NCBI RefSeq assembly: GCF_003334385.1
Contig: NZ_QOWN01000001.1
Length of the DNA: 64,000 bases
DNA from: Escherichia coli
Lineage (GTDB): Bacteria > Pseudomonadota > Gammaproteobacteria > Enterobacterales > Enterobacteriaceae
Direction: 5' to 3' (one strand)
The notes below the pieces were generated by a model. That model was not told where the DNA came from and searched no databases. It saw nothing but the letters and a program-made list of their open reading frames with translations. This document shows, in pieces, positions 58,373 to 64,000 of the stretch (positions are counted from its first letter, which is position 1; each line of letters opens with the position of its first letter). Made by a program: the position numbers and the translations under genes.

Positions 58373-59509
58373 ATGGATCTATTGATTGTTTTAACTTACG
58401 TGGCGCTGGCGTGGGCGGTCTTTAAAATCTTCCGCATTCCGGTAAATCAGTGGACGCTGGCGACGGCGGCGCTGGGAGGCGTGTTTCTGGTGAGTGGTTT
58501 GATTTTGTTGATGAACTACAACCACCCTTACACTTTTACCGCGCAAAAGGCAGTGATAGCGATCCCTATCACGCCACAGGTGACGGGAATTGTTACTGAA
58601 GTCACTGACAAGAATAATCAGCTTATTCAAAAGGGCGAGGTGCTTTTTAAGCTCGACCCGGTTCGTTACCAGGCGCGAGTTGACAGACTTCAGGCTGACC
58701 TGATGACGGCGACGCATAATATAAAGACGCTGCGTGCGCAGCTCACTGAAGCGCAGGCCAACACCACCCAGGTTTCAGCGGAGCGCGACCGTCTGTTTAA
58801 AAATTATCAACGTTACTTGAAAGGCAGCCAGGCGGCGGTGAATCCGTTCTCGGAACGTGACATCGACGATGCGCGGCAAAATTTCCTCGCGCAGGATGCG
58901 CTGGTGAAAGGCTCGGTGGCGGAGCAGGCGCAGATCCAGAGCCAGCTCGACAGTATGGTTAACGGCGAGCAATCGCAGATTGTGAGCTTAAGAGCGCAAC
59001 TTACTGAAGCAAAATATAACCTTGAGCAGACTGTCATTCGCGCGCCGAGCAATGGCTACGTTACTCAGGTACTGATCCGCCCAGGTACATACGCAGCTGC
59101 CTTGCCGCTGCGTCCGGTGATGGTCTTCATCCCCGAGCAAAAACGGCAAATTGTCGCCCAATTTCGGCAAAACTCGCTGTTACGTCTGAAACCCGGCGAT
59201 GATGCGGAAGTGGTGTTTAACGCGCTACCTGGGCAGGTGTTTCACGGCAAACTGACTAGTATTTTACCTGTCGTGCCAGGCGGTTCTTATCAGGCGCAGG
59301 GGGTATTGCAATCATTAACGGTCGTGCCCGGCACGGACGGTGTGCTGGGAACCATTGAACTGGACCCTAACGATGATATCGATGCCTTACCCGACGGCAT
59401 CTACGCCCAGGTGGCGGTTTACTCCGACCATTTCAGCCATGTTTCGGTGATGCGGAAAGTGCTGCTAAGAATGACCAGCTGGATGCATTATCTTTATTTG
59501 GATCATTGA
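58373..59509 (+). CDS. yibH: HlyD-family membrane fusion protein YibH
   Basis: 378-aa ORF with N-terminal TM segment and coiled-coil; start 3 bp after yibI stop. Confidence 0.88.
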
Positions 59510-59968
59510 GGGGGAGGGGGGAGATTATGGAACTTTGCTCCTTGTAAGGACTAATTATTTTTGCATATTACTTCATTAGCTGCGATGATTTTTCTTTAAT
59601 ATTCATTATGTTAATAAGTTCTGGATGAGTGTGCTCTCATTGGATTTTTTATCCGTCTTGTTCTGCCGCAGGATGAGACTATACATCGTCGAGATCGCAA
59701 TGATGATATGAGTTGTTCCTCCTGCGACGGCTCTAATCAAAAAAGAGCAGGAGTGCTTTTCCATCTATTGCGATGATGGCTTTATTATCTGAAGGATGAC
59801 AGTCACATTTAAAAAATATTTAATCTATAGATCACAATGTAGGGTCATGGAATATATGTATACAACTATTTTCTTCTTCACTTTTAATTATCGTATTCAT
59901 TATAAAACTAAGTTAAAAAAACTCCTGGAGAGTGAGTTATTAATATATTTTTAAATAAAATTAAGTTA

Positions 59969-60406
59969 TCATTCATCGATGCACTTTATAGAATCATCAA
60001 TGGCCATAATAGTACTATTAACTCTCAATTTTATATTTTTATCATCACTACAAATATTAACTGAATTTATATCAATGATTTTTTTATTCTTATCTTTTAT
60101 TTTATTTACTGTTTCAATGCAATCAGCGGCAAGTTGGAGTGGATTTAGATTTTTCAGATATGGTCTTATGATCTTTCCCTTACTTAATAAATAGCATGTA
60201 TAGGATTCGGAAAGTCCAGCATCTATTTTGTACCTCATTATATTAGATAAGGATGTGAGAAATTCCTTGTTATCATTCGCAGCCATATATGCCAGTCCGA
60301 GTTCAGCCTCTGCGGCCTTACAGGCAAAATAGCTTAGTGAACACGCTTTTCGTCCCTCTTTAGTACTGGCTGATATTAGTGCCCATAATATTGCTTTGTC
60401 TGCCAA
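59969..60406 (-). CDS. Hypothetical protein, candidate immunity partner of the decayed third Rhs C-terminal cassette
   Basis: 145-aa frame with TTG start and no in-frame ATG upstream; AT-rich; sits directly downstream of the decayed toxin remnant. Confidence 0.4.
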   Translation of the reverse strand: MADKAILWALISASTKEGRKACSLSYFACKAAEAELGLAYMAANDNKEFLTSLSNIMRYKIDAGLSESYTCYLLSKGKIIRPYLKNLNPLQLAADCIETVNKIKDKNKKIIDINSVNICSDDKNIKLRVNSTIMAIDDSIKCIDE

Positions 60407-60494
60407 ATCTAACTCTCTCTGAAATTGTCTTGCAGTAACTGCACTCGCAGAAATAGAGAAAAAAATACAATTGTTAATAACCTTGCCATATTTT

Positions 60495-61110
60495 TTAGTC
60501 CGTAACTGTTAATGTGCTATCTGGCTCTGAAAATATTAACTCATTTAATTTTTGCATGTCATTAGATAAACCAGTTATACAACCCTCGGAACAGAATCGA
60601 GGTCCTAAAGACGGACCAAAAGCGTTTAAACAACTATGTATTGAAAATCCATTGCGATTATAAGTTCCTGTATTAACTGACGGTACTAATCGTATGCCGT
60701 CAGGTTTTCTATTGCTTGCTCCCGGGTCATTAACATTCCAACTCCATAGGCCTTGAGGTATTGGCCATCTATTTATAAATGTGTACAACGGGGATTATTT
60801 TTACATTGCATATTATTACCAGAAGCGACTGGAATACTAAGCACATCATAAAAATTATCATCACATGGTATATCTGAAACACACGAAAGCATACCTAAAG
60901 TTATGCTGTATAAACAGGTGGCTAATCCCAAGGGGATCGATTCCAGAAATCGGGTTCAACGGATACTGATAAAAATTCCACCTACCTTCCAGCCCAATCG
61001 GAGCCTGAGTGTTATACCGCCCCTGCTGCGGTTAATGTTACCGATAATAGTTATAGTACAGCCCTGATTCATCATCATACTACTGCTGCGGCAGTCTGAT
61101 GAACTATTGC
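60495..61110 (-). pseudogene. Decayed orphan Rhs core-end plus C-terminal toxin remnant
   Basis: My translation of 60951-61110 gives [45 protein letters not shown], a stop-interrupted copy of the Rhs core end; followed by a 97-aa TTG-start frame at 60495..60788. Confidence 0.6.
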
Positions 61111-61112
61111 TT

Positions 61113-61574
61113 TTACGGATTCTCCTTATTCTTCCTTCTATCCATTCGCTTTAGCTTTTTGAGCTCTTGAAGTTTGCTCTTTGCATCAATATTACCGTTA
61201 TTTACAGCGAATTCCATCCAATAAATAGCTCTATTCAAATTATAATATTCTGATAATGTTGGATTTGTATCTGATAAAAAGACCCCATAATTAAACTGCG
61301 CTGTAACATTCCCCTGAGATGCTGATCTTTCCAAGAATCGCAATTGTTTGTAAATGTTATTTTTAGTAAAGCAGTAATATTGATATAGTCGAAATGATGC
61401 CTCTGAATCACCATGTTGTGATTTATACTTCAGTTTCATCAACTTTTCTTCACTTAAATCATAGGTCATTGCTGTAGACCCCATCATACTTTCGTTTTGT
61501 TTTATTTTCACATCAGCACCATGCAATTGACAAATAAAAGAGAAATAAAAAAATAGTAACAAGCATGCTTTCAT
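61113..61574 (-). CDS. yibG: Sel1/TPR-like repeat protein with signal peptide; putative immunity protein for the YibJ toxin domain
   Basis: 153-aa ORF, ATG start 12 bp after the yibJ stop; N-terminus MKACLLLFFYFSFICQLHGA is signal-peptide-like; Sel1-like repeats. Confidence 0.8.
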   Translation of the reverse strand: MKACLLLFFYFSFICQLHGADVKIKQNESMMGSTAMTYDLSEEKLMKLKYKSQHGDSEASFRLYQYYCFTKNNIYKQLRFLERSASQGNVTAQFNYGVFLSDTNPTLSEYYNLNRAIYWMEFAVNNGNIDAKSKLQELKKLKRMDRRKNKENP

Positions 61575-61585
61575 ACATCTACAAC

Positions 61586-62566
61586 CTATCTTATATCACT
61601 GGGTTTTTCTGGCGTACCTTGCATATTAGAAATGGGGTGCCCAGATGGCCCATATGTTATCCAATTACCAAGGTCTTTTGTTGTTATAGCCATTAGATCC
61701 TTATTTGAATTAAGGTTCGTTGGTGCTGTTAGCACTGTATCCATTTTTAACTTACCATTAGTTCCTCGCCCCCACCACGTCCATAGCGTGTCAGGTCCTA
61801 TTACATTTGTATGTAACTCTTTAGCTAATTGGCTAGCAAATGAATTTTGTCCTTTACCTGTATTACAAGAAAATAACCAAACTGTCATCCCATCTTTATA
61901 ATTCCCATCAAATTTAATTAGATATGCTAGATCTTTAGCTGTCATGATACTGCGCGTTGCGGATTCAATAGATGTGGGGGTACCATGCCCCCCGATTGTG
62001 AAAACGCCTGGGATATTAATCTCATCAGCTACAGAATGGATAAGATCACTTTCGGGGTATAAATTTATATCAACCAAACCTTGCGGATCTACATTTATGA
62101 CCGGATTCAACGGATACTGATAAAAATTCCATCCCCCCTTCAGTCCAATCGGATCCTGAGTGATATACCGCCCCAGCAGCGGGTCATAATAGCGGTGGCG
62201 GTTGTAATACAGGCCGGACTCCTCATCATACTGCTGACCCGGCAGGCGAATGAGCTGCTGCAGATGATGCGGGTTCTCATCACTCAGCAGGTTGCCCCAT
62301 TCATCATATTCTGCGCACCACGCTGTTGCCCCTTCCGTGCTGATGAGCGCCAGCGGCAGGCCGCGATGGTCGCAGTGGTACAGGTGGATTTTTCGCGCCG
62401 GCGTGTACACCGGGTCCATCTGGTTTTGCATCTGCTCCACGGTCAGGCCGCACGATGCCAGCCAGCGGCGGCTTTCCTCACTCACCCGGTCAGCCAGGAT
62501 TTCACTTTCCAGCCGGTCGAGCATCTGCACCGTGCCGGCGGGAATCCCCCACTGTGCATAGGCAAC
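61586..62566 (-). CDS. yibJ: Orphan Rhs fragment: last ~150 aa of Rhs core plus a distinct ~160-aa C-terminal toxin domain
   Basis: Frame open from 62566 (6 bp after yibA stop) with no N-terminal region; contains [57 protein letters not shown] then an unrelated tail; ORF track shows it from GTG 62530 (314 aa). Confidence 0.8.
62103..62250. repeat. Rhs core 3'-end repeat, copy within yibJ
   Basis: Near-identical to 63856-64000 (GGATTCAACGGATACTGATAAAAATTCCATCCCCCCTTCAG...). Confidence 0.85.
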
Positions 62567-62571
62567 TCACG

Positions 62572-63414
62572 CTATGAACGCTTCAGCTTATCAATAGCGG
62601 AAGTTATAATTTCATTGTCATCAAACTTGTACAACATAGTATCTAAAACAGGAAGTAGCGTTTTATCACCTAATTCACCCGCAGCTTCAATGATATCATC
62701 ATAAACAGTATTTTTTTTTAACTCATCGCATAAAACAGATAAAACCCTTTTATCTTTTCTGTAGGAAAGTCCGATTATTGCTTCAATACGGACTTCCTCA
62801 TTTTTATCCTGAAGCATCTCCACAAAACAATCCCTAATATCACTATTATCATATTTATTGATATTTATTGCAAATGCGGCCCAGTTTCTGACATCTCCAT
62901 TTGGATCTTTTAACAGATTAATCAATAGTGGAATTGTTGCTTTATCATTGATAACAGAAATAGCAAATGCTGTAGCACGTCTGACATTAGTCGATTTATC
63001 AAAAGCAGTAATTTGAGATTGTTCTACTATTTTAGGTGAATAAATTGGGTTTTTCTTGCATCGCTGAGCCGTTGACTCGATTGCCGTAGCTCGAACGCAA
63101 GCGCTCTTATCATTCAATGCCATATTGTTCAAAATATTAAAAACATTATCTTCGCATTTTTTGCAAATTTTTATTTGCCCGAGTATAAATGCTCCGATAT
63201 CTCTACGGATATAATTTTTATCAGAGCAGAACTCAATTGCCAATCTAACAGCGTCTTGCCCACCTCTTAACTGTAATACTCTGGCAGATGAAATCCTTTT
63301 CAAGGAATTGTGATCATCAAGTAAGCGAAATAATTCATCATCATTTAGTTTCTTACATTGATTATATAAACCATACTCTTTACTTGCCTTTCTTTTCTGG
63401 TATGTATTTGACAT
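62572..63414 (-). CDS. yibA: HEAT-repeat protein YibA; putative immunity protein for the RhsA C-terminal domain
   Basis: ORF track frame to GTG 63429; start at ATG 63412-63414 (MSNTYQKRKASKEYG..., 280 aa) with GGAGG 8 nt upstream; begins 20 bp after rhsA stop. Confidence 0.9.
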   Translation of the reverse strand: MSNTYQKRKASKEYGLYNQCKKLNDDELFRLLDDHNSLKRISSARVLQLRGGQDAVRLAIEFCSDKNYIRRDIGAFILGQIKICKKCEDNVFNILNNMALNDKSACVRATAIESTAQRCKKNPIYSPKIVEQSQITAFDKSTNVRRATAFAISVINDKATIPLLINLLKDPNGDVRNWAAFAININKYDNSDIRDCFVEMLQDKNEEVRIEAIIGLSYRKDKRVLSVLCDELKKNTVYDDIIEAAGELGDKTLLPVLDTMLYKFDDNEIITSAIDKLKRS

Positions 63415-63434
63415 TGCAGGAACCTCCACAAGGG

Positions 63435-64000
63435 CTATCTTTTTTTATCGTTTGACTGTCTGGAGTGACGACAATTCCAGGCTTTCTGTGTGCTTTTTGC
63501 ATCTTTAGCACTAATATCACCACAATCAATTAGTTCCTGAAGTACGTCACATCTGTCGGGTTTTTTCCCATCACTCCAGAATCTGTCATTTATTATGTCA
63601 TTGACACGATCAGTTATCCCTGTGTCTGCAACATTTCCACGAGAAGCTATCATTGTTATATCTAATGCTAGTCCCGGATTATTCAATATTAGAGAGTCAA
63701 ATATTCTTTGTGATGCTGTATCGTTCCACCATTTTGTCAATGCTTTTGCAGCATTATCATCTGCTTGCTGCTGTGCAGGGCTTTTGGGCCATGGAATTGG
63801 CAAGGGGAATGGTCTAGGAAAAACTTCTAACCCCAGAGGATCTGTATTCGTAACTGGATTCAACGGATACTGATAAAAATTCCATCCCCCCTTCAGCCCA
63901 ATCGGATCCTGAGTGATATACCGCCCCTGCAGCGGGTCATAATAGCGGTGGCGGTTGTAATACAGGCCGGACTCCTCATCATACTGCTGCCCCGGCAGGC
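63435..64000 (-). CDS. rhsA: RhsA 3' end: end of core including the DPxGL boundary plus variable C-terminal domain; 5' part beyond window end
   Basis: Frame open to window edge; my translation of 63864-64000 gives [57 protein letters not shown], continuing into [14 protein letters not shown]...; stop TAG at 63435. Confidence 0.9.
63856..64000. repeat. Rhs core 3'-end repeat, copy in rhsA proper
   Basis: Near-identical to 62103-62250 and related to the decayed copy at 60951-61110. Confidence 0.85.

Follow-up and report, generated by a model that had tools for sequence, protein, structure and literature searches.

A decayed orphan Rhs toxin/immunity cassette downstream of Escherichia coli rhsA, with a predicted L,D-peptidase tip and an Imm57 gene severed from its putative signal peptide

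We analysed a 64,000-nucleotide (nt) stretch of Escherichia coli DNA (contig NZ_QOWN01000001.1, assembly GCF_003334385.1), hereafter referred to as the window, in which the segment between positions 59969 and 61103 holds a decayed orphan Rhs toxin/immunity cassette. The cassette is a known and already annotated locus, yibS–yibW–yibV of strain K-12 at rhsA, and among the orphan toxin/immunity modules that belong to rhsA in E. coli it is very probably the terminal one and the oldest. Specific identities can be given to its three parts. yibS and yibW represent an Rhs core stub together with a toxin tip of the Tlde1 family, a predicted L,D-peptidase, while yibV is an Imm57 gene that has been severed from its putative signal peptide. 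The gain is mainly a tidier annotation of these K-12 genes, and the locus exemplifies stepwise C-terminal displacement at rhsA.

The cassette corresponds to an annotated locus

As the cassette is already covered by the annotations of E. coli WG5, made by the Prokaryotic Genome Annotation Pipeline (PGAP), and of K-12 MG1655, it is to be regarded as a known locus. A 2.1-kb query across the cassette was 100% identical to WG5, and a 1.2-kb comparison was identical to this genome as well. The PGAP labels of WG5 run from an RHS element core protein through yibA, a partial Rhs fragment (yibJ), yibG and the cassette to yibH. Its core stub is labelled 'RHS repeat-associated core domain-containing protein; internal stop; missing N-terminus', and its immunity gene, the sequence of which is identical to that of the window, 'Imm57 family immunity protein; frameshifted'. 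In K-12 MG1655, yibS (b4650), yibW (b4651) and yibU (b4652) are annotated as pseudogenes and yibV (b4615) as 'PF15596 family protein'; yibW comprises both parts of the toxin remnant together.

The K-12 cassette DNA was 99.9% identical to the window with synteny kept. K-12 resembles the window in the locus, the stops of the core stub, the toxin frameshifts and the frameshift in a run of seven T (T7) of the immunity gene. It differs from the window in a run of A at 60079-60085, which counts seven here (A7) and eight in K-12 (A8). Strain LR-29-1 carries the same extra A. Because of this extra A, the K-12 yibV product is truncated to only 111 amino acids (aa), and the window is accordingly not DNA of K-12 MG1655. 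Of 5426 complete E. coli genomes, 3353 (about 62%) contained the 2.1-kb query at an identity of at least 99%, and its location was chromosomal every time.

The features of the cassette are listed below, with the evidence in brackets.

60924..61103, minus strand: Rhs core-end remnant, about the 60 last codons, part of K-12 yibS (translation, blastn and profile matches)
61082-61080 (TAG), 61040-61038 (TAA) and 61034-61032 (TAA), minus strand: in-frame stops in the core stub (translation)
60932..60936, minus strand: +1 insertion just ahead of the DPLGL junction (pairwise and seven-way alignments with MS1718 and SCU-102)
60773..60923, minus strand: toxin N-terminal third, ending in ...NNPRCTHL and a stop, in a different frame (aligns to residues 1-52 of the MS1718 toxin)
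60495..60772, minus strand: toxin C-terminal two thirds, predicted Tlde1-family L,D-peptidase domain (lies in the 97-aa frame 60495-60788)
60409..60489, minus strand: native start (ATG 60489-60487) and putative signal-peptide region of the immunity gene (comparison with intact alleles)
60459..60465, minus strand: T7 homopolymer in the codons of the putative signal peptide (alignments; an eighth T, T8, restores the frame)
59969..60406, minus strand: 145-aa open reading frame (ORF) with the whole Imm57 domain and a C-terminal tail (TTG start; PF15596 match)

The core stub is an Rhs remnant

A preliminary description of this DNA, made from its letters and a list of ORFs, had placed a stop-interrupted copy of the Rhs core end at 60951-61110. 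Such a copy is indeed present, and its homology extends over 60924-61103, slightly wider than described. The stub ends in the DPLG(L) cleavage motif, with DPLG at 60935-60924. In blastn it matched the core end of rhsA (63856-63998) with 81% DNA identity (E 2e-28) and that of yibJ (62102-62236) with 80% (E 7e-24). When the stops were masked, the translated stub scored 54.9 bits against TIGR03696 (Rhs_assc_core), the cut-off of which is 32.5, and it aligned to the end of the RHS_core model (positions 1203-1261 of 1261) with an E value of 4.5e-23. The Rhs match is well past chance. Meanwhile, the stub is not continuous with a full-length Rhs shell, as it consists of about 60 codons with three stops and begins about 10 nt after the stop of yibG. 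It is a remnant and no functional member of the Rhs family.

The toxin is disrupted by several lesions

The lesions of the toxin and immunity genes were defined relative to the allele of E. coli MS1718 by pairwise and seven-way DNA alignments, the latter including SCU-102. Because of one extra base at about 60932-60936, the toxin is out of the frame of the core. Its N-terminal third is contained in a 52-aa ORF at 60773-60931 and is closed by a CAA to TAA change at 60775-60773 with an adjoining 1-nt deletion, which puts the rest of the toxin back in the frame of the core. Inside the N-terminal third there is also a 9-bp in-frame deletion (GNN repeat). With the +1 insertion, the TAA stop and -1 deletion and the 9-bp deletion, the toxin gene of the window reads as a pseudogene.

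The rest of the toxin lies in the TTG-start 97-aa frame at 60495-60788, which the preliminary description had located correctly and which contains the peptide quoted there; the 52-aa ORF with the toxin N-terminal third and the native immunity ATG at 60489-60487 had been missed. The C-terminal part retains the putative catalytic His (..SIHSC..) and the S-E-G-C motif (CSEGC), and the family-invariant Gly (G56) of NRGPIP is changed to Trp (TGG 60767-60765). On its own, the 97-aa fragment matched Pfam Tlde1_dom with an E value of 0.0083 and YkuD with 0.038. The search for intact homologues of this fragment, as had been proposed, yielded intact E. coli alleles with 86-88% identity.

A variant of the window-type toxin was also observed in a Logan assembly (protein P0002), where an extra 2-nt deletion at window positions ~60770-60785 offsets the 1-nt deletion. 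A 131-aa frame (…NNPRCTFINRWPIPQG…) is thereby reopened, with Trp still standing at the position of the invariant Gly.

Intact relatives place the toxin in the Tlde1 family

In MS1718, the core end (…DPLGL) and a 145-aa tip share a single open frame, which is followed by a 173-aa Imm57 gene. PGAP names this tip 'tlde1 domain-containing protein', and the intact toxin matched Pfam Tlde1_dom (PF10908) with an E value of 5.7e-7. An AlphaFold model of the intact toxin reached a predicted local distance difference test (pLDDT) score of 90.4. Structure searches gave only L,D-transpeptidase and L,D-carboxypeptidase folds as top matches, the top 42 of Foldseek falling in one fold group. In an alignment of 29 homologues, the residues G56, P59, L82, H99, S115, G117 and C118 were invariant. 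The His…S-x-G-C pattern among them is the signature of L,D-transpeptidase-like enzymes, and a corresponding activity is predicted for the toxin. NCBIfam holds no model for the toxin tip or for Imm57.

The preliminary description had also suggested aligning the remnant to intact Rhs C-terminal toxins. Apart from the MS1718 allele, this brought up full-length metagenomic Rhs proteins with the same tip. An exhaustive search of representatives returned 169 relatives of the toxin tip at E<=0.001, among them full-length Rhs proteins of 1378-1616 aa in which the tip forms the extreme C-terminus. A word-indexed protein search found short orphan fragments only, none of them longer than 260 aa, and no full-length carriers. 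Two of the full-length metagenomic Rhs proteins, of 1385 aa (locus L008) and 1570 aa (L013), are each directly followed by an Imm57 gene. For a further full-length carrier (P0031), the downstream gene is cut by the end of the contig.

Within the Tlde1 family, activity on peptidoglycan and periplasmic toxicity are known only for Tlde1a, of the Tlde1a/Tldi1a (Tae5/Tai5) pair of Salmonella Typhimurium. Tlde1a is a Salmonella type VI secretion system (T6SS) effector that is toxic in the periplasm through its L,D-carboxypeptidase and exchange activity on peptidoglycan (PMC9638812; 10.1101/2020.02.18.954545). The toxin tip described here is only 19% identical to Tlde1a. It is fused to an Rhs core, whereas Tlde1a stands alone, and its immunity partner is Imm57, whereas that of Tlde1a is DUF2195. 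With the low identity, and with 18 rather than 9 residues between its putative catalytic His and Cys, the Rhs-borne tip forms a clade distinct from Tlde1a. Rhs-DUF2778 fusions have been described (10.1101/2020.02.18.954545).

Some further observations concern this clade. The loop between the His and the Cys counts 18 residues in the Rhs-borne proteins (HSCxNxFGPS…xCSEGC, residues 99-118 of MS1718) and contains extra, largely conserved cysteines, and stand-alone Tlde1-domain proteins in the homologue alignment have a shorter loop. A metagenomic Rhs protein of 1428 aa with the same tip (P0048, in L009/L010) is encoded beside a BACON-domain protein. The gene next to this carrier encodes a 163-aa protein with no Pfam hit and no recognised Imm57 domain, and it may stand for another immunity family that goes with this clade of toxins.

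The immunity gene has lost the frame of its native start

As the preliminary description had it, a 145-aa ORF with a TTG start and no upstream in-frame ATG is present at 59969-60406. It matched Pfam Imm57 (PF15596) over the entire model (positions 1-100 of 100) with an E value of 2.7e-48, while the 173-aa immunity protein of MS1718 gave 2e-44. The ORF equals K-12 yibV without the additional frameshift of K-12 and runs to the native stop; the whole immunity pseudogene extends over 59969-60489. In the window, the toxin stop (60497-60495) is followed after only 5 nt by the native immunity ATG at 60489, and Imm57 is also found directly downstream of the toxin tip in MS1718, L008 and L013.

This arrangement agrees with the Tox-LD-peptidase/Imm57 pairs of Zhang et al. 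2012, who paired Imm57 with Tox-LD-peptidase toxins on RHS proteins (PMC3482391). As in those pairs, an RHS-borne L,D-peptidase domain with conserved H, S and C has an Imm57 neighbour. Unlike them, the pair in the window is orphaned and both of its genes are disrupted.

The intact E. coli Imm57 protein begins with MARLLTIV(L/F)FFSISA(N/S)A, followed by VT; the N-terminus is MARLLTIVLFFSISANA before VT in MS1718 and MARLLTIVFFFSISASA before VT in O121:H19. The Imm57 homologues of L008 and P0205 likewise have a hydrophobic N-terminal segment that ends in a small-x-small motif. Judged from its hydrophobicity and the A-x-A motifs rather than from a predictor, the Imm57 N-terminus is probably a Sec signal peptide, which would fit a periplasmic toxin. 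The export signal is used here as a trait of the intact homologues examined and not as a published criterion of the Imm57 family. This segment is in frame with the domain in MS1718, O121:H19, L008 and P0205, and out of frame in the window.

The lesion is a change from GTGCTTTTTTT to GTATTTTTTT. Since the T-run has seven T and not eight, the putative signal peptide is out of frame with the Imm57 domain. The native ATG at 60489 thus lies one frame away from the 145-aa ORF, and its frame is now a dead end of 26 codons, MARLLTIVFFSLFLRVQLLQDNFRES, with its stop at 60411-60409. The preliminary description had taken the TTG as the start of the gene. It is not; the ancestral start is the ATG at 60489, put out of frame by T7. 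Because this ATG now opens a dead-end frame and leaves the domain as a TTG-start ORF, the TTG is an accident of ORF calling and not a true gene start.

The same description had held that the partner ORF may still encode a working immunity protein. Its assignment to an immunity family proved right, and the ORF is left with neither its start nor its export signal. The window ORF lacks the export signal that would be needed against a peptidoglycan-targeting toxin, and therefore a working immunity protein in the window is unlikely.

It could nevertheless be argued that the 145-aa ORF is still translated from its TTG and acts, as an immunity protein or otherwise, without a signal peptide. The Imm57 domain is complete, and the ORF is open in the window, in O157:H7 and in IAI1. 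Re-initiation after the 26-codon leader frame is a conceivable route, as the stop of this leader sits 2 nt ahead of the TTG (60406) and a AGAGAGAG stretch lies upstream. Moreover, yibV mRNA is detectable in K-12 and was reported as induced (PMC11228462). The product would, however, be cytoplasmic and so in the wrong compartment, since the toxin family acts on periplasmic peptidoglycan and the intact homologues have signal-like N-termini. In addition, K-12, LR-29-1 and SCU-102 have each gained further frameshifts in the ORF, as expected without constraint, and PGAP treats the immunity gene as a pseudogene. We consider translation into a functional product improbable, and the immunity gene is more plausibly a relic like its toxin.

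One T separates the window from an intact immunity gene

Across an 81-nt segment at the T-run, 3207 of the 3363 carrier genomes were identical to the window (T7). A query with one extra T (T8) had an exact match in 38 genomes, so that at least 38 of 3363 carriers have this form, and at least 7 further genomes, in which a match of 82 nt has a single mismatch, may be in frame as well. In both T8 genomes inspected, PGAP reports an intact 173-aa Imm57 protein (WP_000113243.1), and from its TTG codon on, the window ORF has the same sequence as residues 29-173 of the intact protein in O121:H19. Hence a single T separates the window from an intact immunity gene, which is intact in about 1% of the carriers of this allele. 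The T8 backgrounds are varied: besides O6:H16, NCTC9064 and isolates from animals, they comprise several O121:H19 isolates of more than one laboratory. T8 could be the ancestral state that was kept or the result of a reversion, and in a few cases it could stem from a faulty assembly.

These data raise the question whether the run is a reversible slip-strand switch, with the frameshift as a regulated and recoverable off state of the orphan immunity gene. If so, populations would reopen the gene on meeting neighbours armed with Rhs L,D-peptidase toxins. Two findings would suit such a switch: T8 and an intact 173-aa Imm57 occur in at least 38 of the 3363 genomes, where the haplotype is otherwise almost the same, and the T8 backgrounds are varied. 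Yet the uniformity of T7 over 81 nt in 3207 of the 3363 genomes argues against one, and for a contingency locus a run of 7-8 nt is short. Among the T8 genomes, several are clonal (O121:H19), and inheritance rather than switching thus explains many of them; some T8 runs may be homopolymer errors in long-read assemblies, and the retention of the ancestral state would account for T8 without any switch. Finally, the partner toxin is dead in all T8 genomes. A switch is therefore very improbable in our view, even more so than translation from the TTG, and the frameshift is better read as part of the decay.

The cassette is the oldest of the modules stacked behind rhsA

Of the three tandem modules behind rhsA, the cassette lies farthest downstream. 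In O157:H7 and IAI1, the yibJ-type tip with yibG still forms the live end of an rhs gene of 4.2 kb, and the cassette is the sole orphan behind it. In the window (61113-63429) and in K-12, an extra RhsA-CT/yibA module, CT denoting the C-terminal tip, stands in front, and yibJ itself is orphaned. The number of stacked modules is lineage-specific, with two in O157:H7 and IAI1 and three in the window and K-12. This series follows the pattern of C-terminal displacement, and therefore the cassette is the oldest of the three modules. The suggestion of the preliminary description that an older displaced cassette is caught in decay was thus supported by its most downstream position, by an intact E. coli allele and by Rhs relatives with the same immunity family.

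C-terminal displacement leaves behind orphan rhs-CT/rhsI modules (Poole et al. 2011, PMC3150448); Jackson et al. 2009, as cited in that paper, also deals with this process. As in those modules, a short core piece up to DPxGL, a tip and an immunity gene are found here behind an rhs gene of full length, and in-frame stops in the retained core, as in the window stub, are known from other orphans too (PMC3150448). Many of the orphans described there are intact and can be reactivated, whereas the cassette of the window has multiple inactivating lesions.

The lesions of the core stub and the toxin are common to the window, K-12, O157:H7, IAI1, LR-29-1 and two T8 strains, and over 1.2 kb these cassettes show 0-3 substitutions against the window. 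As the lesions are shared by K-12, O157:H7 and IAI1, the decay is old. Besides the extra A of K-12 and LR-29-1, individual strains carry additional, independent lesions, namely a TGG to TAG change in the toxin of IAI1, a 6-nt duplication in the cassette of LR-29-1 and a 5-nt deletion in Imm57 of SCU-102, which carries another allele.

This second allele occupies the same chromosomal site in about 300 genomes with about 91% DNA identity, while the decayed form is found in about 3364. Its toxin frame was open in both genomes inspected, and its downstream flank was nearly identical to that of the window form. Between the two E. coli alleles, the ratio of nonsynonymous to synonymous substitution rates (dN/dS) was 0.23 in the toxin (dS 0.27) and 0.32 in the immunity gene (dS 0.15). 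These ratios indicate that most of the divergence took place under constraint, and therefore that the alleles diverged while functional and were inactivated later.

It should be further pointed out that 0-3 substitutions per 1.2 kb among K-12, O157:H7, IAI1 and O121:H19 seem few for DNA without constraint in different phylogroups. Six genomes were inspected for the neighbouring YibH protein, and all but SCU-102 share one accession. The neighbourhood of the cassette may be unusually uniform or recently exchanged.

From what is known of these families, the following history can be proposed. The ancestral module would have closed a full-length rhs gene at its 3' end, its C-terminal tip of about 145 aa being an L,D-peptidase of the Tlde1/Tox-LD-peptidase family. 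The tip would be enclosed in the Rhs shell, freed after the DPxGL motif and delivered to the periplasm of a neighbour, probably via the T6SS, where it would trim or mis-link the stem peptides of peptidoglycan. The Imm57 protein encoded by the next gene would reach the periplasm through Sec export and there neutralise the toxin. Newer cassettes, yibJ/yibG and later RhsA-CT/yibA, would then have recombined onto the rhs core, and the old module would have been pushed downstream with about 60 core codons retained.

Several points weigh against this account. The decay appears, on the substitution ratios, to be younger than the split of the alleles. The Tlde1_dom match of the intact toxin is modest (30 bits), and when the intact toxin and Imm57 were used as phmmer queries against solved structures, the matches were at chance level only, so that a fold search was needed to tie the toxin to Tlde1a. 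The spacing of the putative catalytic His and Cys is 18 residues in the tip as against 9 in Tlde1a. The papers searched, of which only two mention Imm57, contained no experimental test of this toxin clade or of any Imm57 protein, and delivery by the T6SS is suggested by knowledge of the family rather than by data on the rhsA locus. Finally, the 145-aa ORF remains open in most lineages sampled and, together with the yibV transcript of K-12, leaves room for residual expression. Nevertheless, the homology, the fold, the lesions, the distribution and the pairing of toxin and immunity genes in intact loci together make a decayed terminal module of rhsA the highly probable reading.

Surroundings of the cassette

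The gene order of E. coli at this site is rhsA-yibA-yibJ-yibG-yibS-yibW-yibV-yibU-yibH, then yibI-mtlA. In the window, the flanking ORFs are lldP, yibL, mtlR, mtlD, mtlA, yibI and yibH, followed by the series of Rhs-related ORFs on the minus strand. An Rfam scan of 59400-61700 revealed no RNA family.

The cassette region is AT-rich, with a GC content of 24-42%. Promoter-like sites in the region were no commoner than in shuffled sequence, and no terminator-like site was found. These features might suggest chance ORFs and a merely 'Rhs-like' stretch in an AT-rich spacer. This explanation is ruled out by the matches to the Rhs core, Imm57 and the Tlde1 family and by the synteny with intact alleles.

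Downstream of the cassette lies a transposase remnant.

59606..59804, minus strand: yibU, ISAs1/H-repeat transposase remnant (K-12 b4652)

In BLASTP, yibU matched the intact ISAs1 transposase of MS1718 over 36 aa (56% identity, E 1e-10). MS1718 itself has an intact ISAs1 element directly upstream of the cassette, and this element truncates the Rhs core stub.

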